Origin: a virus
Taxonomy: Duplodnaviria; Heunggongvirae; Uroviricota; Caudoviricetes
Strand: one strand, 5' to 3'
Length of the DNA stretch: 64,000 bases
Virus record (IMG/VR): IMGVR_UViG_3300008267_000017
Span: 1 to 64,000 of that record
The position numbers and the translations under genes are program-made. Within the stretch, counting starts at the first letter, position 1. Each line of letters begins with the position of its first letter. The notes below the pieces were generated by a model. It was not told the origin of the DNA. It saw only the letters and a list, made by a program, of their open reading frames with translations, and did not search any database. This document shows, piece by piece, positions 103-25,812 of the stretch.

Positions 103-1389
103 TTAATGGAACTGACCAAGCAACTTAAACTCCAACCCACGTTGCTTTGCAAGCTTGTTACAATGCCACAACCACAAATCTAAAATATATGCTCCTGTAC
201 CTTGAATCAATGTACTAAAACGATCTTTGTCAGATCGCAAAGAGTACCAGAACTTATTGATAGGATTTAGCTGCCAATCCCCAAAAGATGTTTTCTTTAC
301 AGTCATCATCTTAGAAATCTTCTCAATACTCCAATTCAGTTTGTGATAACCTTCATGAAGCTTCTTAGCCACCTTCTCAGATACCTTAGCTGTCCTTGCA
401 ATTGTCTTCACACCAGCTCCGTACTGGCAAGCGTAATTTGTAGACTTCCCTGCAGCACGAATGTCATCAAGTCGTCTGAACTCTGCATCACCTTCATCTG
501 TGTGCTGATCTTTGGGAAGCTTCTTATACATCTTATACCAAGCAATCTCTTCCTCTGTAATCAATCCTCCCATACCTGCAACCATTAGATGTGGGTCAAA
601 GCCATCTTCCATTTGACTCTTGACATACTCAGGGTCAATCTTCCATTGAAAGTGGTGTTTGAGGCGGTCTTCCAGAGAGGATAAATCTGATCCTAATAGA
701 GAACAGCCATCCCTAGCAACTAACAGCCCTCGAATCTGTTCACCATAAGCAACTCGCAAACTAGGAAGATTTACAAGAGTAGAGTGCTGCAGCCTCAACG
801 TATTAGTAAATCCTTGACAGCCAGCTTCCAGATATCCATCAACATGATCTCGTAAGAATCCCTTCACCATACTATTACGATGATTGAGAATACCCAAACC
901 TGCAATATGTTCAATACCTGCACACTTTGGAATCAAGTCTTTTACAGATTGACAAACTTCACCACCCTTTAAGTTTACTTGAGGAATCTGTCTTGTTGTT
1001 CCATCATCTTCACGAACAAACTTAAAGGTCTCGGCGACCCAACCTAAACTGTCCAACCATGCTTTTATTTGGGTGTGACTTGCTGGATTTCCATCTTCAT
1101 ATTCTTTGACTACTTTAATATCTTCTTTGTGCTCAAAGGGAAGTCCTAAAGATTCTGTAAGTTCCTTCCAACGCAGCCCTGTTGCAGACAGTTCACCACT
1201 TTTTGTATAGGGCTTTGCAGGACGTGAGCGAACAACATACTTAGGATTCTTAGGCATTGCAAGTCGTAGGGCATCTGTCTTTTTCTCTACTTCTACCTGC
1301 AACTCTCCTTGTAACTTCTCAGCACCCTCAACGTCAAGTTTCCACTTATTACGCTGCTGCATTACTTGCTCGTCCATCTTCCACATCAA
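103..1389 (-). CDS. family A (T7-like) DNA polymerase, polymerase-domain segment, frameshifted from the upstream exonuclease segment and truncated before motif C
   Basis: Motif A-like GSDLSSLEDRL (T7 GIDASGLELRC) and motif B-like KSTNYACQYGAG (T7 KTFIYGFLYGAG). The ORF opens with a TTG codon and has no RBS. It ends LLGQFH then stop, where HDE is expected. Confidence 0.8.
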   Translation of the reverse strand: MMWKMDEQVMQQRNKWKLDVEGAEKLQGELQVEVEKKTDALRLAMPKNPKYVVRSRPAKPYTKSGELSATGLRWKELTESLGLPFEHKEDIKVVKEYEDGNPASHTQIKAWLDSLGWVAETFKFVREDDGTTRQIPQVNLKGGEVCQSVKDLIPKCAGIEHIAGLGILNHRNSMVKGFLRDHVDGYLEAGCQGFTNTLRLQHSTLVNLPSLRVAYGEQIRGLLVARDGCSLLGSDLSSLEDRLKHHFQWKIDPEYVKSQMEDGFDPHLMVAGMGGLITEEEIAWYKMYKKLPKDQHTDEGDAEFRRLDDIRAAGKSTNYACQYGAGVKTIARTAKVSEKVAKKLHEGYHKLNWSIEKISKMMTVKKTSFGDWQLNPINKFWYSLRSDKDRFSTLIQGTGAYILDLWLWHCNKLAKQRGLEFKLLGQFH

Positions 1390-1394
1390 GAAGT

Positions 1395-1904
1395 CTACAA
1401 TGCGTTTATAGCTACCTGTTTATAGCTACCTTCTTCTTTACCGTACAACTCTTGTAGTCTTGTAACTTGACGTAGCCACAAGCGTTTCTGAATCTTACAG
1501 TCTTCAATAACACGATGGTTGTAGTCCTCTTGAGTTAAGTTTTCCCAATCAGTGATGGGTGGTTTTGGTACACCAAACTCCTCACCATATTTTTCTAAGC
1601 CATGAATAATGCGCGAAGGCTCTAAATACCATGACAGAGCGACGCTATCAATTAACTTGGAGTTGCTTGTATCAAATCCTAGGAATTGCAATGCTTCAAA
1701 GTCAAACAGCTTACCATAGTGCATCACAAGTGTGTGACCTTCATCTAAGAAATCTTGGATTCCTTGTGGATTTGTGTGTTCAAATAAAACAATCTCATCA
1801 CCTTCAATAGGTATTGCGCAGAAGTTATGAAGCCTTGGATTGGCTTGCTTCTTCATTTGGTGCAATAACCCTGTGGTTTCAATATCTGCTGCATAAATAC
1901 CCAT
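1395..1904 (-). CDS. DNA polymerase N-terminal 3'-5' exonuclease domain (segment of the family A polymerase ending at the duplication-induced stop)
   Basis: Exo I motif DIETTGL close to the N-terminus, as in T7 gp5 (DIEANAL). RBS GGGAGGT lies 6 nt before the ATG at 1904. The ORF track begins at a GTG at 1910. Confidence 0.8.
   Translation of the reverse strand: MGIYAADIETTGLLHQMKKQANPRLHNFCAIPIEGDEIVLFEHTNPQGIQDFLDEGHTLVMHYGKLFDFEALQFLGFDTSNSKLIDSVALSWYLEPSRIIHGLEKYGEEFGVPKPPITDWENLTQEDYNHRVIEDCKIQKRLWLRQVTRLQELYGKEEGSYKQVAINAL
1404..1431. repeat. perfect 14-bp tandem duplication (gtttatagctacct x2) inside the DNA polymerase gene, causing a frameshift
   Basis: Copies lie at 1404-1417 and 1418-1431. 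Deleting one copy joins ORF 1395-1910 to ORF 103-1389 in frame (...EEGSYK-RIVDFLMWKMDEQ...). Confidence 0.9.
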
Positions 1905-4065: not shown

Positions 4066-5720
4066 AAGGAAACCTCTTCATCTTCATCAGAAACAACAGC
4101 CCAAGTATCTGCATCAAGTTTGAAAGCATCAGCTACACCCAAATATGACCATGTACGATTTTTAAGCGTAACAATTCGGCAACGTCCTCGTGTACGGTCT
4201 GGCATAATCTCTGGCTCTAATGCCAAGATATTCCAACTCAAAGCCTCTAAGCTGCTGCTACCTCTCAAAGACTCTTTAGTTACTCGCACCCAAAACGGTT
4301 GATCTTCCTTACCTTTAGGTGGCTTAAAAGCATCAGCATTAGTACGATTAATATGACTAATCACGATAATACAAATATCATTAGCTGCGCAGAAAGCAGC
4401 AAGAGTGGTCATCGTCATATCTAGTTCAGCACGTTCATTAGCTACGTCTGGAGAAGTTAGAATAGAAATATGGTCTACCACAATGTAGCGACAGCCTTCT
4501 ACAAAATACATGTGCTTGATCTTGCTCATAAACTCGGACAAAGGGAGTGACCCAAAGTGATCTAACATCACAACTTTATTATCTCCAATGATATTGTCGT
4601 ACACTTTTCTAATATCTTCAAGTGAAGCAACAGAAGTTGGTTTGTTCTTAAACTCTAAGTAATTAACTTTCAGTTGTGAAGCAATCATACGTTGAAGTGT
4701 TTCTTCTGGACGTTCTTCTAAGTAAATCATCCCCACACGCTCCCCTGCAGACATAAAAGCATTCGCAAAGATAGCAGAAATTGTACTCTTGCCAACATTT
4801 GTAGGAGCACATAGTAGAGTCAGTTCACGAGTTCTAAAACCTTTGATTTGATTCATAAGCTTAGGAAACTCTGGAACCATAATACCAACAGGACGTTCTG
4901 CAATCAATTGCTCAAAACTAATATCTTCGGCTTTCAGAATCTTCTCAGCAACATATGGTTTAATTCCAAACGCAGCTAACTTAGCTAATTCCTTACTCTT
5001 ACCTTGTTGAAGATAATCAGAACAATCTTTCATTTCTACGTTATGTGGTAAGTAGAACAAAGGAGCACCCATCAGAGCATTACCTAATGCGTCTCGTGCT
5101 TCACGTCCCTTCATCATACCTTTTAACTTCTCTGCTGCTGTAGCTTCATCGTTGTCCATAGCTAAAACAATAGCATCTTTAAAAGACATCACGAAGTCTT
5201 TATTCTGAAGGACATGTTCTGTCGCAGAAGCTGTTCCAAAACCAATACTTACAACAAAGGGCTTTAAATCAGAGTAAGACGTTCCTTTTACATCGTCAAT
5301 CAACGACTGGTACAAACTGGCTGCACAGAACTCACCTTCAACAATAAACAATTTAGAATGCTTACGCTGATTTTGGTTAGCTAAAGGTTGTCCATACAAT
5401 TGCACATCCTTTTTCAAATTTCCAACTGTTGTGAAATGATACTTCTCATCTTTTGGGATGGTCATATCACGTTTCTTGAAAGCTACAAGCTCTCCCTTCT
5501 GATTGTAGTAAGGGAAATAATATGCAATATGTGTCTTCCCATCGCTAGGACTTAATGCAGTTCTAATGCCAAATAACTCACATGTTTCTTTTGTTAAACC
5601 TCGTTCTGGAATATCCATAAACGGGTACGTTAATACATCCTTCAAACTTTCCTTTGGCTCATATTTTTCTCCATTACTACTCATCTCATCTCCTTTGTTT
5701 TGTTTCCAATAACCCATCAC
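4062..5720 (-). CDS. T7 gp4-like DNA primase-helicase (TOPRIM primase domain plus DnaB-family helicase, no zinc-binding domain seen)
   Basis: TOPRIM motifs IVEGEFCAASL and LAMDNDEAT. Walker A LLCAPTNVGKST, Walker B-like IVVDHIS, and a helicase arginine-finger region. Confidence 0.85.
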   Translation of the reverse strand: MMGYWKQNKGDEMSSNGEKYEPKESLKDVLTYPFMDIPERGLTKETCELFGIRTALSPSDGKTHIAYYFPYYNQKGELVAFKKRDMTIPKDEKYHFTTVGNLKKDVQLYGQPLANQNQRKHSKLFIVEGEFCAASLYQSLIDDVKGTSYSDLKPFVVSIGFGTASATEHVLQNKDFVMSFKDAIVLAMDNDEATAAEKLKGMMKGREARDALGNALMGAPLFYLPHNVEMKDCSDYLQQGKSKELAKLAAFGIKPYVAEKILKAEDISFEQLIAERPVGIMVPEFPKLMNQIKGFRTRELTLLCAPTNVGKSTISAIFANAFMSAGERVGMIYLEERPEETLQRMIASQLKVNYLEFKNKPTSVASLEDIRKVYDNIIGDNKVVMLDHFGSLPLSEFMSKIKHMYFVEGCRYIVVDHISILTSPDVANERAELDMTMTTLAAFCAANDICIIVISHINRTNADAFKPPKGKEDQPFWVRVTKESLRGSSSLEALSWNILALEPEIMPDRTRGRCRIVTLKNRTWSYLGVADAFKLDADTWAVVSDEDEEVSF

Positions 5721-5726
5721 ATCTCC

Positions 5727-5909
5727 TTAGCAAAGATACCAATATCCAATCCCAACATCCTCAAGAATGTGTTCATCACTGAATAAGAAATCTTCAGATT
5801 CATCTCCAATGTCGTTCACAGACCTTACTTCTATGAAGCTTGTTCTATAAGTATCTAAAGGACTTCTAGAAGATAATACTTCATATACATAATATTTCTT
5901 AAAGCCCAT
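5727..5909 (-). CDS. hypothetical protein
   Basis: Small ORF between the helicase and the next gene. Confidence 0.35.
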   Translation of the reverse strand: MGFKKYYVYEVLSSRSPLDTYRTSFIEVRSVNDIGDESEDFLFSDEHILEDVGIGYWYLC

Positions 5910-6214
5910 TATAATAAGCCATCCATAGTTACTTTGTGCAGATGTGTAATTTCCTCATCCATTCTTACAATAGAATCGCAGAGCTTAATCACTTGTACAC
6001 GAGCTGACTTGAGTTCTTTCTTTAGATGCTTCAACTCTCGCTCATCTAAAATCAACTGCCTGAGAAGCTGCTTGTCTTGCTTTTGCTCAACAATAAACCG
6101 CTTATACTGAGCCTTCATAGCCCTCGTTGTAGCAAACTCACCCATTCGAGTTATTAGATATGAACGCCTTGATATCCTACTCTGCAACACACTCATCAAC
6201 TTTTGTTTGTTCAT
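5909..6214 (-). CDS. hypothetical basic, coiled-coil-like protein
   Basis: ORF in the co-oriented array. Confidence 0.4.
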   Translation of the reverse strand: MNKQKLMSVLQSRISRRSYLITRMGEFATTRAMKAQYKRFIVEQKQDKQLLRQLILDERELKHLKKELKSARVQVIKLCDSIVRMDEEITHLHKVTMDGLL

Positions 6215-6356
6215 ACATTCTCCTCATAAAACCTATCATACTCATCAGTGCCAAACTCAAGTACATAATAGTCATCACTCTTCCAGATACTGTCATACCA
6301 ATCTTCTCGGCACATCCAACCACCGTCTGCCCATACGAATATGTCTTCTAGGCTTG

Positions 6357-6878
6357 TCATGTAACACCTCCATTCTTAGCACAGTGTAATTGGTAAACAC
6401 AACGAGCATAACTGTCAGCTTCTGTCTTGTCAAGACGCTCTTCGACAAAAACTGGTAGAAACAGAGAAGCAATCTTATTATCTCGCTTAGAAATAATGTC
6501 ATTAGCTTTCACTGTAACATAAATACTATAGTCTTGTATAGTCTCTGGAGAATACATTTCCCACCAAGCTTTACGTTGATCATCCGAGAATCCTGTACCT
6601 ACGTCTGATACGAGCAACCTATCTCTAGAAGCCACTGTCAAGCTACCCATCATACCTTTATATTTGTTCGTACCTTCTGTTATACCAATCACTTCCAAAT
6701 CTACTTCAAACTCGATTTTAAGTTTTAAACAGTCTTTTGATGTCCCTGAAGACCACTTAAAATCCTTAGTTTTAATTACACACCCCTCAGAACCGTTGGA
6801 AGTATATTCTGAATAGATTGAATAAGCTTCTTCTAGTGACTCTACTTTGTATGTCTTTACCATTTTAATATTTTTCAT
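6357..6878 (-). CDS. ATP-dependent DNA ligase, C-terminal segment (motifs IV and V, OB domain), translated as a separate ORF with its own RBS
   Basis: EGCVIK (motif IV) and LKLK (motif V). GGAG RBS 8 nt upstream of its ATG, lying inside the 3' end of the HNH gene. Confidence 0.8.
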   Translation of the reverse strand: MKNIKMVKTYKVESLEEAYSIYSEYTSNGSEGCVIKTKDFKWSSGTSKDCLKLKIEFEVDLEVIGITEGTNKYKGMMGSLTVASRDRLLVSDVGTGFSDDQRKAWWEMYSPETIQDYSIYVTVKANDIISKRDNKIASLFLPVFVEERLDKTEADSYARCVYQLHCAKNGGVT

Positions 6879-6881
6879 ATT

Positions 6882-7439
6882 TTATTCTCCGTGTGTCTCA
6901 GTATACCCATAACCTAATAAATTTAACTTTTTAATTTGATTCTGCCTACACTCAATAGCAAGCCGCATTGCTTCATCTTTTCCGTATTTTATAACAGAAA
7001 ATGATTTTTGTCTCATTCTCTTATCCGTGTCATACCAAAAAGCAATATAAGCAGGAAATCTTGAATTTCTAAAATAAACCCCTGTAGTCCCTGTTGAATT
7101 ATTTGGATGCTTACTCCTGTTTCTAGCATTGTTTTCAGCCTTAACAGCTCTTATATTCTCTATTTTATTATCAGTCTTATCCCTGTTAATATGGTCTATT
7201 ACATAACCTTCCCACATGTCTTTGTTGAACATTTCATAAATTATTCTGTGTACTAGATATGTTTTACTTTTTAATTTGACATTATAGTATCCGTGAGAAC
7301 TTTGAGAAACCACTGGGTCTCCTTTATTCACTAAAACTCTTTTATAATATTCACCTGTAAATACACTGACTTGCCACCTCAAACAGCTAGGACTTGTCTC
7401 ATCATAATAAAACCAATCGTGCCAGTTAATTTCACTCAT
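6882..7439 (-). CDS. HNH homing endonuclease with AP2 DNA-binding domain, inserted between the two halves of the DNA ligase gene
   Basis: HNH core VIDHINRDKTDNKIENIRAVKAENNARN. AP2 domain GVYFRNSRFPAYIAFWYDTDKRMRQKSFSVIKYGKDEAMRLA. Its ATG lies 2 nt after the ligase-N stop, and its stop lies 3 nt before the ligase-C ATG. Confidence 0.85.
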   Translation of the reverse strand: MSEINWHDWFYYDETSPSCLRWQVSVFTGEYYKRVLVNKGDPVVSQSSHGYYNVKLKSKTYLVHRIIYEMFNKDMWEGYVIDHINRDKTDNKIENIRAVKAENNARNRSKHPNNSTGTTGVYFRNSRFPAYIAFWYDTDKRMRQKSFSVIKYGKDEAMRLAIECRQNQIKKLNLLGYGYTETHGE

Positions 7440-8280
7440 CTTTTAAAATCCTTTTCAGTGTCTCCAATCTCTCTGTATAAGGCACACTTGATTTACCAGC
7501 TTTAAATTCTGCCACTGTCAAACAATCCCAAGCTGTCAACTCAAATGCGAGATTATCCCCTACTTCCCCACCCTTAAGAACACTATTCAAAATACCATTT
7601 CCTGTCTTTCGGTCTAAAGGAACACCTAATGTAGCAGCTTCTCCATACACTAATAATTCTCCCACCACTACAAACCCTTCAGGAAGTCCTACAGCAAGCT
7701 TTTCAGCGAATTCTGGAGGATACTTGCTACCAGCTCGTGTAATCGCTTCAGGAGCCTTTCCCGCCTCTTTAACAAGGTAGCAGAAACTACCATCAAGCTT
7801 CTCTTGTACGAAGAATGACTTGAGCTTACTAAAACGCTCTTTTACTTTAACATCCATTAGTGAGCATCTTTGGTAAGGTGGAATAAAATACAAATCAGGA
7901 AACACTTTCAAAATCATTGTGTCACCTACACCAGCTCCGATAGAGCGTTTGATGAGAAGTTCTAGAAGCTCTTGACCTTGTTTGTTTAAGTGCTTATACT
8001 GATAAGTCAACCAAGTCTCTGCTTCTTTTCCAGTTACTTTACGATCTGCTAAATACCACACAACATTAGACAATATTTTAAAGTTTATATCGTGCTCTGT
8101 GTCATATTGATCTGTAACTTTAGTAATTTTTGTTTGATAATAACTAATAGCAGGGTCATACACTGCCTTCAAATAAGCCTTCAACAGCTCATTGTCCTTA
8201 TTAGCTTCCAAAATAGCTGTCTTAGCATTTGAGCCAGAAGCATTCTGCAGTTCTTTAATAATTGTATATAAATTACTCAT
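7432..8280 (-). CDS. ATP-dependent DNA ligase, N-terminal adenylation segment (motifs I, III, IIIa)
   Basis: KLDGSF (motif I KxDG) and VVGELLVYGE (motif III). Start refined to MSNLY, which has AAGAGGAG 7 nt upstream. Confidence 0.8.
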   Translation of the reverse strand: MSNLYTIIKELQNASGSNAKTAILEANKDNELLKAYLKAVYDPAISYYQTKITKVTDQYDTEHDINFKILSNVVWYLADRKVTGKEAETWLTYQYKHLNKQGQELLELLIKRSIGAGVGDTMILKVFPDLYFIPPYQRCSLMDVKVKERFSKLKSFFVQEKLDGSFCYLVKEAGKAPEAITRAGSKYPPEFAEKLAVGLPEGFVVVGELLVYGEAATLGVPLDRKTGNGILNSVLKGGEVGDNLAFELTAWDCLTVAEFKAGKSSVPYTERLETLKRILKDE

Positions 8281-8455
8281 TAACATTCTCCTCTTGATTA
8301 TCACGACCCTCATTATGCAACTGACTAGCAGCAACCTCTCGTAATACATTTAATGAATTATACATCTCTGCAGGAGTGTAGTGTTCTATATCTCTGACAA
8401 TTGCTTCTAGTTTCTTCTTGAAATAGTGAGCATCCAGTCCGTACCTGTTGTTCAT
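8273..8455 (-). CDS. hypothetical protein
   Basis: Small ORF whose stop overlaps the ligase start. Confidence 0.35.
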   Translation of the reverse strand: MNNRYGLDAHYFKKKLEAIVRDIEHYTPAEMYNSLNVLREVAASQLHNEGRDNQEENVNE

Positions 8456-8713
8456 ATTCTCTCCTCAAGTTTCAAAATAACATGTCGAAGCAGACTCCTC
8501 ATCTACCTCTAATGACAGATGTACCGTCACATCATGTGTGTAATAATTATCCATAGATGTTCTCGCAGATAACCGCACCTTTTCACGAATAATATCCATT
8601 ACAGCCTTCTCAAACTGCTCTTGTGTCTCAAATACTATCATATTCTCTCCTTATGTAATAAAAGCCTCAGAACGCTCATAATAAGACATTCCAAGGCTTC
8701 TGTCAAGTATCTT

Positions 8714-8920
8714 TTAAAGAATTACAAACTTACTTTCATATTCCTCAGCTTCTTCTTCGTAAGAAGTCCAATCCTCCCAAAGTGAGTGGCTTAATTCATT
8801 AGTGTATGCTACAGACGGAGTAGAAGTTTTCTCAGGGGATTGTCCGTGGTCGCAATAGGAATATACTTCTAAATCTTGTGGCATTTCTTTCAGTAATTCA
8901 ATTAGTTCAAAAACTTTCAT
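8714..8920 (-). CDS. hypothetical acidic protein
   Basis: ORF, co-oriented. Confidence 0.4.
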   Translation of the reverse strand: MKVFELIELLKEMPQDLEVYSYCDHGQSPEKTSTPSVAYTNELSHSLWEDWTSYEEEAEEYESKFVIL

Positions 8921-8930
8921 GTTGTTTCTC

Positions 8931-9128
8931 CTATTTAAATAATTTAGTTCGCATAATTAGAGCTACTAACAAAACAATAAATCCACCAAAAGAAGATAAG
9001 ATACATTGTACTATGGCTAAATCACTATTGATGAAGTCTGAGAAGCTATCTTGTTTTACATTATGCAGTGATAACAAACCTAGTAATCCTGAAGTCACCC
9101 ACATAATAATAAATAGAAATTCGATCAT
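8931..9128 (-). CDS. small membrane protein (2 predicted TM helices)
   Basis: Hydrophobic segments LFIIMWVTSGLLGLL and GFIVLLVALIM. Immediately downstream of the SPFH gene. Confidence 0.4.
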   Translation of the reverse strand: MIEFLFIIMWVTSGLLGLLSLHNVKQDSFSDFINSDLAIVQCILSSFGGFIVLLVALIMRTKLFK

Positions 9129-9129
9129 A

Positions 9130-9930
9130 TTACTTCCCTCCTACATTAACCATACCTTTGAAATCCATCGGCACAACAATCGTATTCACTTTACCTGCAG
9201 CAATACCCTCAGCAATTTTCATTTGTGCTTGAGCATTCATGTAAGCAATACTTTGTCCACTATTTGCTGCCAATGCTGCCATACGTTCAGATTCTTTCTT
9301 TGCAATCTCAACTTCTGTGGCTTTGATTTTCAATTCATTCTGAGCACGTACATACTCTGTGGCAGATTTGAGAATTTCAGCATTAGGAGCTACATTACGA
9401 ACTTGGATTGCAGAAATAGTGATACTCGTGTCAAGCTTCTCCTCTCGTAAAGACTCATTCAACAATACTAAAATTTCTTGCTCAATCTTAGCGCGACTGT
9501 CTGCTACTTCAAGTGCTTTGTACTGACGGATGGACTTGTAAGTGGCATTATTCACAAGTGTTGTGATGTAATTGTACATCAAATAAATGTCTCCGTCTTC
9601 TGCTGTGGCGTGAAAGCTCTTGGCTTTACTTGCATACAATTCAGATACGCTGCTAGGTGAAATGTTGTATACCACTGTCAAATCAAAGTCAGCTAATGCG
9701 CTATTGTCTGCTGTCAATGGTGTCTTATTTTCAACTGACAACGAAATATCCTTAACAGGAAATGTTAATACATTACCAAACATTGTTTGATTCCAACTAC
9801 CAGAAGGAAGTTCTGTCATCTGGATTTGTTTTGACATATCTTCTCGTACACCTACTTCACCTGTAGAGATGCGAGTACATCCTGTAGCTGCAATAACTAA
9901 TGATAATGCAATAATAATTTTCTTCATGTG
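9130..9930 (-). CDS. SPFH/band-7 (prohibitin-like) domain lipoprotein
   Basis: Signal peptide with lipobox MKKIIIALSLVIAATGC. The C-terminal Ala/Glu-rich coiled coil is typical of SPFH proteins. Start refined to MKK. Confidence 0.65.
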   Translation of the reverse strand, partial: HMKKIIIALSLVIAATGCTRISTGEVGVREDMSKQIQMTELPSGSWNQTMFGNVLTFPVKDISLSVENKTPLTADNSALADFDLTVVYNISPSSVSELYASKAKSFHATAEDGDIYLMYNYITTLVNNATYKSIRQYKALEVADSRAKIEQEILVLLNESLREEKLDTSITISAIQVRNVAPNAEILKSATEYVRAQNELKIKATEVEIAKKESERMAALAANSGQSIAYMNAQAQMKIAEGIAAGKVNTIVVPMDFKGMVNVGGK

Positions 9931-10125: not shown

Positions 10126-10977
10126 CTATACAGCCATTGGTGCAGAAATTGATGGGTGACAGTAATAATCTCCTAAATGAATATCGTCAGGTTGCAAACT
10201 CTGAATCCAATCATAAGGTGAAATATCACAATCTTCATTCCAGCCCTTCATAATTAGCCAAGGCAAATAGTATTCTTCCCGTGACAACTGCTCTTTTACT
10301 TGTTCTATGTGGTTCTCATAAATATGCACATCACCTAAGAACATCTTCAAATGTCGTGGCTTATATCCTGTAGCCTCCGCAACAATGTGCAGTAGCAATG
10401 CATACGAAGCAATATTAAAAGGAATTCCTAAGAACAAGTCACAAGATCGTTGATTCATCGTCATAGACAACTCACGAGTTTCAACATTTGCGTAAAATTG
10501 AAAATCTGTATGGCATGGAGGTAGTGCCATTTGATCTACTTTTAGTGGATTCCATGCTGTAATACGAATACGTCTACTTGTCGGGTTATTTACAATCTCA
10601 TTTAAGGCATTCTTGATCTGGTTAACACCTTCACCATTATAGTTAATCCACTGTGAGCCGTAGATACATCCAAGGTCATCCTCTCCCTTACGTACGGGAT
10701 TCTTTAACCAAGCTTCATTCTCATTTGCATTCTGGTTCCAGATATTGCAACCAAGCTTCCGAAAGTCTGCAGCATTTGTATAGCCTCGCAAGAAACCTAA
10801 TAATTCTCCCTTAACGGCATTAAAAGCAAGTTTCTTCGTAGTAATAGCTGGAAAGCCATCATTCATATCAAATGACAGCATCTCTCCAACAATAGAATAA
10901 CAAGGGATTCCTGTGCGATTGTTTTGCAAGATTCCTTCGTCCAACACCTTCTGTAATAAATTGTGATACTGTTTCAT
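10126..10977 (-). CDS. thyA: thymidylate synthase (ThyA family; a dUMP/dCMP hydroxymethylase cannot be excluded)
   Basis: RTGIPCYSIVG folate-binding region, catalytic-Cys motif ALPPCH, DLFLGIPFNIASYALL. Confidence 0.85.
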   Translation of the reverse strand: MKQYHNLLQKVLDEGILQNNRTGIPCYSIVGEMLSFDMNDGFPAITTKKLAFNAVKGELLGFLRGYTNAADFRKLGCNIWNQNANENEAWLKNPVRKGEDDLGCIYGSQWINYNGEGVNQIKNALNEIVNNPTSRRIRITAWNPLKVDQMALPPCHTDFQFYANVETRELSMTMNQRSCDLFLGIPFNIASYALLLHIVAEATGYKPRHLKMFLGDVHIYENHIEQVKEQLSREEYYLPWLIMKGWNEDCDISPYDWIQSLQPDDIHLGDYYCHPSISAPMAV

Positions 10978-15538: not shown

Positions 15539-15727
15539 TTAGGTTCATAAGTAATTTGCTAGGCTCAATTCTAGGCATATTATCAGAGTATGTCAAGAAG
15601 TTTGCATCTGATTCTTTATAATTATTGAAAAGTATCATTTCCATAGCATAAGACTTTCCGTAATGAGTGCCTCCTCCGACAATTAGAACTCTCTTATCAT
15701 CTTTTACGTAGAGTTCTTCCTTCATAC
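15525..15727 (-). CDS. hypothetical protein (start refined to MKEEL, ATGA-coupled to the recombinase stop)
   Basis: GGGTHYGKS is P-loop-like but short. Confidence 0.35.
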
Positions 15728-16372
15728 ACTCCCTTTCATAGAAATTTGCTTCTGCAACTGGTTCCATTTCGCTTCTAATTGCTTGAAAGCCTCTGCACAA
15801 GAATATTGCTTCTTGTACGTGCTTACACTTTTCTCAGATACACCATGTCGGTGAGCCACATTCATACGAGAAACACCAGCTTGCAAGTCTGCTAGGATAG
15901 CTTTGATTTTGTCTGGGGAGTTTGTTTGTCTTTTGCCAAGTATCACCCCTTCAGCTTTGCGTCTAGCTAATCCCGATATTACACGCTTCTTGATACTTTT
16001 GAGTTCATTAGCTGCCAACACAGCATGAATGTCAAACTCAATTTTATCATCCTCTCCTTGCAGAACTTTACCAATTTGAAGGATGTTAATCTTCACTCCA
16101 CGTTTGAGAAGTGTTTCAGCAATCGAGATAGTATTACCAGAGCCACGACCCCAACGGTCTACACGAGTGCTGTAAATGGTTGTGTCAGAGTCTACTTCCT
16201 CAATCATACGAGAGAACCCTGCACGTTCATACACACTCTTTGCACCACTAATTCCGTGGTCGATGTAGTAGGCATCGAATTTACCACCGATAAATTCTTC
16301 AAGCTCAAAAATTTGATTTTCTGGGCATTGATCTGTGCGCGAAACACGAGCATAAAGTACACGTTTTGACAT
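15722..16372 (-). CDS. small serine recombinase (resolvase/invertase family) with C-terminal HTH
   Basis: RVLYARVSRTDQ holds the catalytic Ser. VDRWGRGSGNTISIAETLLKRGVKINIL resembles the resolvase DRLGRS block. C-terminal HTH VSRMNVAHRHGVSEKSVSTYKK. Confidence 0.85.
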   Translation of the reverse strand: MSKRVLYARVSRTDQCPENQIFELEEFIGGKFDAYYIDHGISGAKSVYERAGFSRMIEEVDSDTTIYSTRVDRWGRGSGNTISIAETLLKRGVKINILQIGKVLQGEDDKIEFDIHAVLAANELKSIKKRVISGLARRKAEGVILGKRQTNSPDKIKAILADLQAGVSRMNVAHRHGVSEKSVSTYKKQYSCAEAFKQLEAKWNQLQKQISMKGSV

Positions 16373-25200: not shown

Positions 25201-25812
25201 TTAGTCTGTAATTTCAACTGTGAAGTTATTTAAAGCTTCGATTACTTTAGGATGTATCATTCCTTCATACTTTATTGCGAGTTCTTTAGCAAGAGCTTCC
25301 TTGTAAACTTTGTAAGCTTGGAAGGCTTCTTCTGGAGTGTCGTAGAATCCTAGATGTTTACTGCAGCTTCTGCCATCACTTGCAGTTGCTCTGTACATCC
25401 CCTTCAATTTGTAGAAGTCTACACCTATTGGATGGCTGCCTCTGTCTCCTTTCCTTTTTGTCAAGAAAGTATTAACTTGCCTTGGAATAAAGAAGCTTGT
25501 ATCCTCTGAGTAAAGTTTATTTCCTTTGAGCACAACGTCCTTGTCCAATTGATAATCTTTTAACTTAAATCCTATCTGAGACTGACACCACTCTGCGAAA
25601 TATTGAAAGTTCTTAAAATTATCAGAAGCTTCGCAACCTATATAACTAGGATACCTTACATGGAGTTTCGCAGAGTAACACCTCTCCAGCATATTTTGCC
25701 ATAAGATGTATTCTTTCGTACGTTTTCTACCGATACTTCTAAGATGTTTCCCTTTTTCAGAAACTCCGACTCCTTGCACTAACCTCTTACCCATTCTTAT
25801 TCCTCTCCTCAA
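25201..25812 (-). CDS. homing-endonuclease-like protein, paralog B (degenerate HNH-like plus AP2-like, ends ...VEITD)
   Basis: QLDKDVVLKGNKLYS and C-terminal RGSHPIGVDF...GFYDTPEEAFQAYKVYKEALAKELA. Paralog of 3499-4065 and 38758-39732. Confidence 0.6.
   Translation of the reverse strand: MRRGIRMGKRLVQGVGVSEKGKHLRSIGRKRTKEYILWQNMLERCYSAKLHVRYPSYIGCEASDNFKNFQYFAEWCQSQIGFKLKDYQLDKDVVLKGNKLYSEDTSFFIPRQVNTFLTKRKGDRGSHPIGVDFYKLKGMYRATASDGRSCSKHLGFYDTPEEAFQAYKVYKEALAKELAIKYEGMIHPKVIEALNNFTVEITD

Follow-up and report, generated by a model that had tools for sequence, protein, structure and literature searches.

Organization of the ligase locus

IMG/VR record IMGVR_UViG_3300008267_000017 derives from an uncultured phage of the Caudoviricetes with a genome of about 86 kb. 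The window analyzed here comprises positions 1 to 64,000 of this record, and all window-wide results refer to these 64 kb. On its minus strand, three open reading frames (ORFs) are packed head to tail, namely the N-terminal fragment of a DNA ligase (N-fragment), an HNH-AP2 homing endonuclease gene and the C-terminal fragment of the same ligase (C-fragment) (Table 1).

The initial annotation of this locus located the ligase motifs KLDGSF and VVGELLVYGE in ORF 7432-8280 and EGCVIK and LKLK in ORF 6357-6878, an assignment which the ORFs and the sequence bear out. The HNH and AP2 domains that it attributed to the gene between the two pieces have likewise been recovered by Pfam searches of ORF 7439..6882, both above their cut-offs: HNH_3 (E 4.9e-13, 48.9 bits for a cut-off of 24.8) and AP2 (E 3.1e-09, 37.4 bits for a cut-off of 33.3). 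The DH...N...N motif of the HNH protein is conserved in all relatives compared. In the C-fragment, Pfam identifies DNA_ligase_OB_2 along with the C-terminal end (last 50 positions) of DNA_ligase_A_M, and the first residues of the N-fragment are shared by the ligases of relatives.

The junctions between the three ORFs leave almost no intergenic DNA. The last residue of the N-fragment, Glu282, and its TGA stop codon come from the 5' end of the inserted HNH gene, and a second in-frame stop codon, TAA, lies one codon past this TGA. Although a gap of 2 nucleotides (nt) had been reported before the HNH ORF, the two reading frames in fact overlap by 8 nt (ATGAGTGA), an arrangement which would set up translational coupling of the HNH ORF to the N-fragment. 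The description of the other junction was accurate, with a 3-nt gap between the HNH stop codon (TAA, 6884-6882) and the C-fragment start codon (ATG, 6878-6876) and with a GGAG ribosome-binding site (6890-6887) embedded in the last HNH codons. The HNH ORF is out of frame with both ligase pieces, each of which has its own start codon, stop codon and ribosome-binding site, and these signals are conserved in the five split loci described below. The C-fragment initiation region is nearly unstructured (minimum free energy of -2.5 kcal/mol), and no hairpin masking any of the three initiation regions was found (z 0.3-1.0). No terminator-like site was detected in 5700-9000 and promoter-like matches are not clearly enriched (17 versus 10.7 +/- 3.7); one polycistronic mRNA with coupled translation would be the simplest reading of the locus.

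Table 1. Features of the split ligase locus in the window and corresponding loci in other assemblies (aa, amino acids).
Feature	Position	Strand	Details
Ligase N-fragment	7432..8280	-	282 aa, starts MSNLYTIIKEL; N-terminal DNA-binding domain and first part of the nucleotidyltransferase domain
N-fragment motifs			I, K161-L-D-G (KLDGSF); III, E208 (VVGELLVYGE); IIIa, W251-D252
Shine-Dalgarno sequence of N-fragment, GAGGAG	8288..8293	-	7 nt 5' of ATG (8280)
Possible Shine-Dalgarno sequence of HNH ORF, AAGGA	7449..7453	-	9 nt 5' of HNH ATG, within ligase coding sequence; putative
HNH start/N-fragment stop overlap, ATGAGTGA	7432..7439	-	8 nt; HNH ATG 7439-7437, N-fragment TGA 7434-7432
Free-standing HNH-AP2 homing endonuclease gene	6882..7439	-	185 aa; HNH_3 residues 61-106, AP2 residues 119-168
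Inferred inserted DNA	6879..7437	-	559 nt; ends can slide 2 nt, as AT precedes both junctions
Shine-Dalgarno sequence of C-fragment, GGAG	6887..6890	-	In last HNH codons CAC GGA GAA TAA; 8 nt 5' of ATG 6878
Ligase C-fragment	6357..6878	-	173 aa; ATG 6878, TGA 6357; last nucleotidyltransferase strands and whole OB domain
C-fragment motifs			IV, E313-G-C-V-I-K318 (EGCVIK); V, K334/K336 (LKLK); VI, R430/D432/K433
Split locus L045, same-site endonuclease gene	4839-5411		JGI 3300060282
Split locus L046, same-site endonuclease gene	4836-5408		SRR6058015
Split locus L047/L048, same-site endonuclease gene	4830-5390 (L047)		SRR6747781/2
Split locus L106, same-site endonuclease gene	968-1549		ERZ27315213

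Identity of the ligase and position of the break

When joined, the N- and C-fragments form a protein of 455 residues whose best sequence match is the T4 DNA ligase (PDB 6dt1, phmmer E 5.2e-28), with an alignment which is gapless across the junction. An AlphaFold model of the joined chain, obtained with 75 homologues, comprises the DNA-binding, nucleotidyltransferase and OB domains with a mean predicted local distance difference test score of 88.7, and Foldseek returned the same T4 structure as its top PDB match (E 1.3e-37, template modelling score 0.69). While T7/T3-type ligases had been proposed as the reference for comparison, the closest counterpart in both sequence and fold is therefore the T4 ligase. 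In addition, tblastn searches placed the two halves side by side within a single gene in over 1,500 phage records bearing the annotation gp30-type DNA ligase, as for example in Stenotrophomonas phage DLP_6. The active-site lysine motif I (K161-L-D163-G164), which aligns with KADG of T4, does not vary among 76 homologues or among the four split ligases checked, and E208, W251/D252, E313-G314..K318, K334/K336 and R430/D432/K433 are invariant or nearly so among these 76 homologues. The enzyme is an ATP-dependent ligase of the three-domain T4 gp30 type and not of the two-domain T7/T3 type.

Alignment to 6dt1 also upheld the predicted position of the break between motifs IIIa and IV. It falls between residues 282 and 283, equivalent to about Y314/D315 of the T4 ligase as counted from the alignment, around 30 residues before motif IV and inside the nucleotidyltransferase domain. 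The model shows residues 280-285 as a loop that connects a helix (268-279) with a strand (286-288), and the break is thus predicted to occur in a surface loop of this domain. The N-fragment comprises the DNA-binding domain together with motifs I, III and IIIa. The C-fragment contributes the entire OB domain, with motif VI, and the remainder of the nucleotidyltransferase domain (two to three strands and a single helix), with motifs IV and V.

Apart from the break, a segment of the DNA-binding domain (ligase residues ~50-120; window 7830-8130, minus strand) is hypervariable among close relatives, with 35-64% nucleotide identity versus 80-97% in its flanks, and it varies in length.

The insertion seen against intact relatives

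The initial annotation called for relatives devoid of the HNH gene, and these have been found. The six closest relatives in IMG/VR (L002-L007; 59-80% identity) encode one uninterrupted ligase of 448-458 residues within the same gene neighborhood, consisting of the ligase, small ORFs and a primase-helicase. Unlike these and other gp30-type ligases, the window ligase is not a single chain, as its two ORFs are parted by a 559-nt insert. The insert is present in the window and absent from these relatives, and the joined fragments are colinear with the intact ligases, differing in length by a single additional residue. Where the window reads AAA GAT [559 nt] ATG AAA, two of the relatives (L004 and L005) read GAT ATG, leading to a reconstructed ancestral sequence ...AAA GAT / ATG AAA AAT.... 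Of the 559 inserted nucleotides, 556-558 are HNH coding sequence and only 1-3 are non-coding. The insertion adds one residue, Glu282, to the N-fragment and none to the C-fragment, and the start codon of the latter is, judging from this alignment, an internal methionine codon which was already present before the insertion.

The contiguous gene in relatives and the precise 559-nt insert show that insertion of the endonuclease gene caused the split. The proposal that a free-standing HNH gene fragmented the ligase, in the manner of mobE or seg insertions, accordingly stands. No close cultured relative of this phage is available: megablast of 6000-8600 against the INPHARED phages gave no match, and the nearest primase-helicase is 53-56% identical.

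Searches for a restored single chain

An alternative explanation is that a contiguous ligase is restored despite the insertion, through a group I or group II intron, trans-splicing of a split intein, or ribosomal bypassing or frameshifting. Phage group I introns often house HNH ORFs, which lends this explanation some appeal. A scan of 6000-8600 against Rfam at E<=10 returned no intron family, the RNA of the insert is not unusually structured (fold z-score of -1.14), and the 1-3 non-coding nucleotides complete the case for rejecting an intron. Similarly, a split intein would take up about 100 + 35 residues on top of the ligase, whereas the joined fragments have one residue more than intact homologues; Pfam revealed nothing beyond ligase domains in either fragment, and the HNH ORF differs in frame from both. 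A "fractured gene" of this type was also rejected, and the initial annotation was right to exclude both intron and intein.

A further point in favor of a restored chain is a T TTA AAA heptamer at 7441-7447 (minus strand), which has the X XXY YYZ slippery form in the ligase frame and is located two codons before the N-fragment stop. It is probably coincidental, since a -1 shift at this site encounters a stop after one more codon (AGA TGA). As the HNH ORF is in the +1 frame, a frameshift fusion was also rejected, and bypassing of 559 nt would exceed by more than tenfold the 50-nt case of T4 gene 60. Taken together, these data make restoration of a contiguous ligase by any such route highly improbable.

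Recurrence of the split ligase

The best 120 homologues retrieved with the N-fragment were surveyed, and the junction was inspected in about 50 of the intact ones. Among these 120, six N-fragment proteins end at the same codon and about 110 are full-length. The split N-fragment homologues measure 279-290 residues and end at the same alignment column, and five loci, the window included, have been verified to possess the N-fragment/HNH/C-fragment layout (Table 1), the splits being scattered among intact ligases. The N-fragment protein of the L047 type is found on 7 contigs. In the other split loci, an HNH_3(+AP2) ORF of 186-193 residues has a start which overlaps the N-fragment stop, and a C-fragment of 167-173 residues, beginning with MKNIK, starts 0-3 nt after the HNH stop. 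All five loci share the 5' junction xxT GAA ATT AA, read as TGA-AAT-TAA in the frame of the ligase, and the 3' junction CAY GGA G.., with GGAG 7-9 nt 5' of ATG AAA AAT AT.

Because the window was assembled from metagenomic data on an uncultured phage, the arrangement might be an artefact of assembly or sequencing, such as a chimeric contig. Yet the layout and the junction motifs recur in independent JGI, Logan and ENA assemblies at 65-80% ligase identity, and the exact window proteins have been recorded from two sources. On this sequence comparison, recurrence in four other independent assemblies rules out an assembly artefact, and the probability we would assign to artefacts in general is negligible.

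Several other candidates were rejected. One protein of 281 residues (P0036) belongs to an intact gene with a frameshift (L107, 1096-2065; ENA ERZ27251996), which occurs about 14 codons before the insertion site with the remainder in the +1 frame and reflects either a sequencing error or a real pseudogene. Four others (P0019, P0049, P0086 and P0114) are probably cut by contig ends. A scan of IMG/VR for the 3' junction pattern GGAGAATRAN{2,4}ATGAAAAATAT gave 56 matches, none of which is a split ligase of this family, the pattern being too generic in AT-rich phages for the scan to be selective.

Spread and mosaicism of the endonuclease gene

Over the first 262 residues, the nearest neighbor of every split ligase is an intact ligase (for example, P0021 with P0020 at 89% and P0030 with P0023 at 85%). 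The window ligase is itself 80-100% identical in nucleotides to that of the intact relative L002 as far as some 15 codons ahead of the junction. Between -10 and +30 codons relative to the junction, it is instead about 90% identical to the split genes of L045 and L046 and 43-67% identical to intact genes. A short flanking tract would then travel with the HNH gene, which is consistent with homing and co-conversion, ordinary recombination being the alternative.

The endonuclease gene itself is mosaic. The window HNH protein is 50% identical to those of L045 and L046 and 62% identical to that of L047. Its first 15 codons are 90-97% identical in nucleotides to L045 and L046 and the final six match all three at 83-89%, while the interiors of the same-site genes, between these nearly identical ends, are only 30-67% identical. 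In L106, the N-terminus of the endonuclease resembles that of L047 and its C-terminal half that of L045 and L046. Such a pattern suggests that the interior has been either swapped between lineages or diverging fast, with the ends remaining fixed. The dN/dS ratio (non-synonymous to synonymous substitution rates) of the L045/L046 endonuclease pair, 0.135, indicates that the gene is under selection.

Relatives of this HNH protein at 43-62% identity occur at this ligase site as well as elsewhere between genes, the distant ones (43-49% identity) sitting between unrelated genes. In at least one such locus (L042), the start of the HNH gene overlaps the upstream stop and AAGGA precedes the downstream ATG; in view of this tight packing, the start, stop and Shine-Dalgarno design looks like a property of the cassette and not like an adaptation to the ligase. 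Its first codons, xxT GAA ATT AAy, put TGA and TAA in the host frame, and its last codons, CAY GGA G.., place a Shine-Dalgarno sequence ahead of the downstream sequence. It is possible, although we would stop short of calling it probable, that the HNH-AP2 family is a self-contained, gene-splitting-competent cassette which inserts between genes, as in L042, or in a tolerant loop without abolishing downstream expression. In the ligase, this would have led to a two-chain ATP-dependent enzyme, broken in its adenylation domain and assembling without added tails, while the endonuclease interior would have been repeatedly swapped between lineages, its ends and the ligase flanks remaining unchanged.

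Regarding mechanism, we propose that a free-standing HNH-AP2 gene with nearly no extra DNA was copied into a gp30-type ligase gene at the position of a surface loop. The first HNH codons would give the upstream part of the ligase its stops (TGA, then TAA), and the last ones would give a GGAG ribosome-binding site to the downstream part, starting at the pre-existing methionine. The three ORFs probably lie on one transcript, with translation coupled from the N-fragment to the endonuclease and on to the C-fragment. Non-covalent association of the two ligase fragments would most likely follow, restoring the adenylation domain and yielding a ligase made of two chains. The endonuclease, in turn, would spread by cutting intact ligase alleles of co-infecting relatives, repair copying in the endonuclease gene together with about 40 codons of flanking ligase sequence.

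Functional two-chain ligase or dead gene

Of the 14 catalytic or invariant residues checked, none has been lost from the four split ligases compared (L106 not included), although these have diverged to 66-90% amino acid identity. Pairwise dN/dS among the split genomes is 0.07-0.29 for both halves. The most informative comparison, that of the C-halves of the window and L045, a pair which shares the endonuclease-linked flank, gave a dN/dS of 0.072 at a synonymous divergence (dS) of 0.73. Frameshifts or premature stops occur in none of the ten ligase fragments. Purifying selection on both halves, the kept catalytic residues, the conserved start and Shine-Dalgarno sequence of the C-fragment and the persistence of the split in several lineages would favor a functional two-chain ligase over a dead gene. 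Overall, we consider it quite likely that the locus encodes a genes-in-pieces ligase of the T4 gp30 type, split by a free-standing HNH-AP2 gene and working as a two-chain enzyme.

The contrary explanation is that the insertion killed the ligase, the two ORFs being decaying remnants and the phage relying on the host NAD-dependent ligase or on another phage enzyme. T4 ligase mutants can be partly rescued by the host ligase under some conditions. The break, moreover, lies within the nucleotidyltransferase domain. No second copy of the ligase or of the HNH gene was detected in the 64-kb window at E<=1e-3; a second ligase could sit in the rest of the genome. However, decay is difficult to reconcile with the retention of catalytic residues at such divergence, the low dN/dS of both halves, the uninterrupted frames of all ten fragments, and the conservation of the C-fragment start codon and its GGAG in all five loci. 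Moreover, a truly damaged homologue, the frameshifted L107, looks different. Loss of ligase function is thus unlikely.

Several points nonetheless weigh against an active two-chain ligase spread by homing. Association of the fragments and ligase activity are inferred for an uncultured phage known from its sequence. A break inside the catalytic domain, rather than between domains, makes assembly demanding, and there are no insertion-derived tails to aid association, unlike in the NrdA protein of phage Aeh1 discussed below. Some of the divergence on which dN/dS was computed may have arisen in uninterrupted genes and then been brought in by recombination, and selection acting on the split form is consequently not strictly proven. 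Among the approximately 50 intact homologues with inspected junctions, no uninterrupted ligase with flanks of the endonuclease-linked type (DMKNIK) was found. Finally, the same-site HNH genes are 46-62% identical between lineages, unlike what a single recent sweep would produce.

Comparison with known systems

Gene splitting by homing endonucleases is already known, although no open-access full text was found that describes it for this type of ligase. The nrdA gene of Aeromonas phage Aeh1, split by the free-standing HNH gene mobE, encodes an active split enzyme, NrdA-a/NrdA-b (Friedrich et al., 2007, PMC1851037; Crona et al., 2011, PMC3045599; PMC2988022, section 17). As in the window, an HNH gene is located inside an essential DNA-metabolism gene which is contiguous in relatives, each of the two cistrons has translation signals of its own, neither RNA nor protein is spliced and the break affects a functionally critical region. 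The host gene is in one case a ribonucleotide reductase and in the other an ATP-dependent DNA ligase. Activity of the Aeh1 enzyme depends on C- and N-terminal tails that the insertion supplied (PMC3045599), whereas in the window only Glu282 is added. Enzyme activity has been demonstrated for Aeh1, while the two-chain ligase is known from its genes; as against Aeh1, the split ligase allele is present in five diverged genomes with mosaic flanks.

A "fractured gene" with a split intein has been reported for a Felix O1-like ligase (2009, PMC2677866). In both cases, an endonuclease gene with its own control elements separates the two pieces of a phage ligase gene from metagenomic material. The pieces of the fractured ligase carry intein fragments, in contrast to those of the window, which amount to an intact ligase plus one residue and must stay two chains. 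The endonuclease also differs, being of the HNH-AP2 type in the window and GIY-YIG or Vsr-like in that report, and the window ligase is of the T4 gp30 type. Similarly, the ligase of phage T5 is annotated as two adjacent ORFs, ligA (T5.116) and ligB (T5.117). This enzyme is NAD-dependent and belongs to another family, and its ORFs are about 200 nt apart with annotated promoters and no endonuclease gene between them.

Other phage replication enzymes, like the window ligase, are encoded as two polypeptides on either side of a site with a free-standing homing endonuclease gene. In T4, mobA accompanies the split between genes 39 and 60, and in Aeromonas phage 25 a seg-like gene accompanies that of the gp43 DNA polymerase, as summarized in section 17 of PMC2988022. 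Both involve other host genes and endonuclease families than the window. For gp43, that section leaves unclear whether the endonuclease caused the split, whereas intact relatives and the 559-nt insert show the cause in the window. The nrdD gene of Felix O1-like phages is a further genes-in-pieces case (PMC2988022; PMC4837284).

HNH-AP2 homing endonucleases have been described before (Magnani et al., 2004, as cited in PMC10448857), and "IPA-HNH" genes are reported in ICP1 phages (PMC10448857). Like the window gene, these are free-standing, combine an N-terminal HNH with a C-terminal AP2 domain and are linked to genetic-exchange boundaries. The ICP1 genes are described as too divergent for Pfam HNH_3, in contrast to the window protein, which scores above this threshold. 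In open-access full texts, no paper on a T4-type ATP-dependent ligase split by an endonuclease gene was found; queries for split or interrupted DNA ligases returned only unrelated biotin-ligase papers, and "ligase subunit A/B" returned papers on succinyl-CoA ligase.

If the two chains are active, a T4-type ligase tolerates a break in its adenylation domain, at about T4 Y314/D315, without helper tails. This would represent a second and mechanistically distinct case, after the Aeh1 ribonucleotide reductase, of phages neutralizing gene fragmentation by selfish DNA, and it would offer a break point of natural origin for the design of ligases that are split or assemble conditionally. The mosaic flanks and swapped endonuclease interiors seen across the five diverged split alleles also amount to a natural data set on the spread and replacement of endonuclease genes in uncultured phages.

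Other genes in the window and in relatives

An ORF of 203 residues at 25201-25812 (minus strand) gives a sub-threshold AP2 match (24.9 bits for a cut-off of 33.3) and overlaps the preceding ORF, of 183 residues, by 26 nt. It has no detectable similarity to the HNH gene of the ligase site and may represent another AP2-type endonuclease gene, either divergent or decayed.

The family A DNA polymerase ORF of the window (103-1389, minus strand) encodes 428 residues and ends at position 334/381 of Pfam DNA_pol_A. At the unrelated locus L042, the polymerase is found in two ORFs (4307-5689, 460 residues, and 5686-6273, 195 residues) with a 4-nt overlap and nothing inserted. In this phage group, the polymerase, too, may be encoded by two separate ORFs.

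Upstream of the ligase by about 1.8 kb, the window encodes a ThyA-type thymidylate synthase (10126-10977, minus strand; PF00303, E 1.8e-90). Split-ligase relatives carry a ThyX-type gene (PF02511, Thy1) about 0.6-1 kb upstream (L045, 2002-2994; L046, 2295-3311; L047, 2648-3370), a difference suggestive of non-orthologous replacement inside a single phage group. An SPFH/Band 7 (prohibitin-like) gene (9130-9927, minus strand; PF01145, E 7e-18) is situated between the window's ligase and thymidylate synthase genes. Lastly, a serine recombinase is encoded at 15722-16372 (minus strand; Pfam Resolvase, 83 bits, with a weak HTH_Tnp_1 match) in a genome which otherwise looks like a lytic-type replication module.

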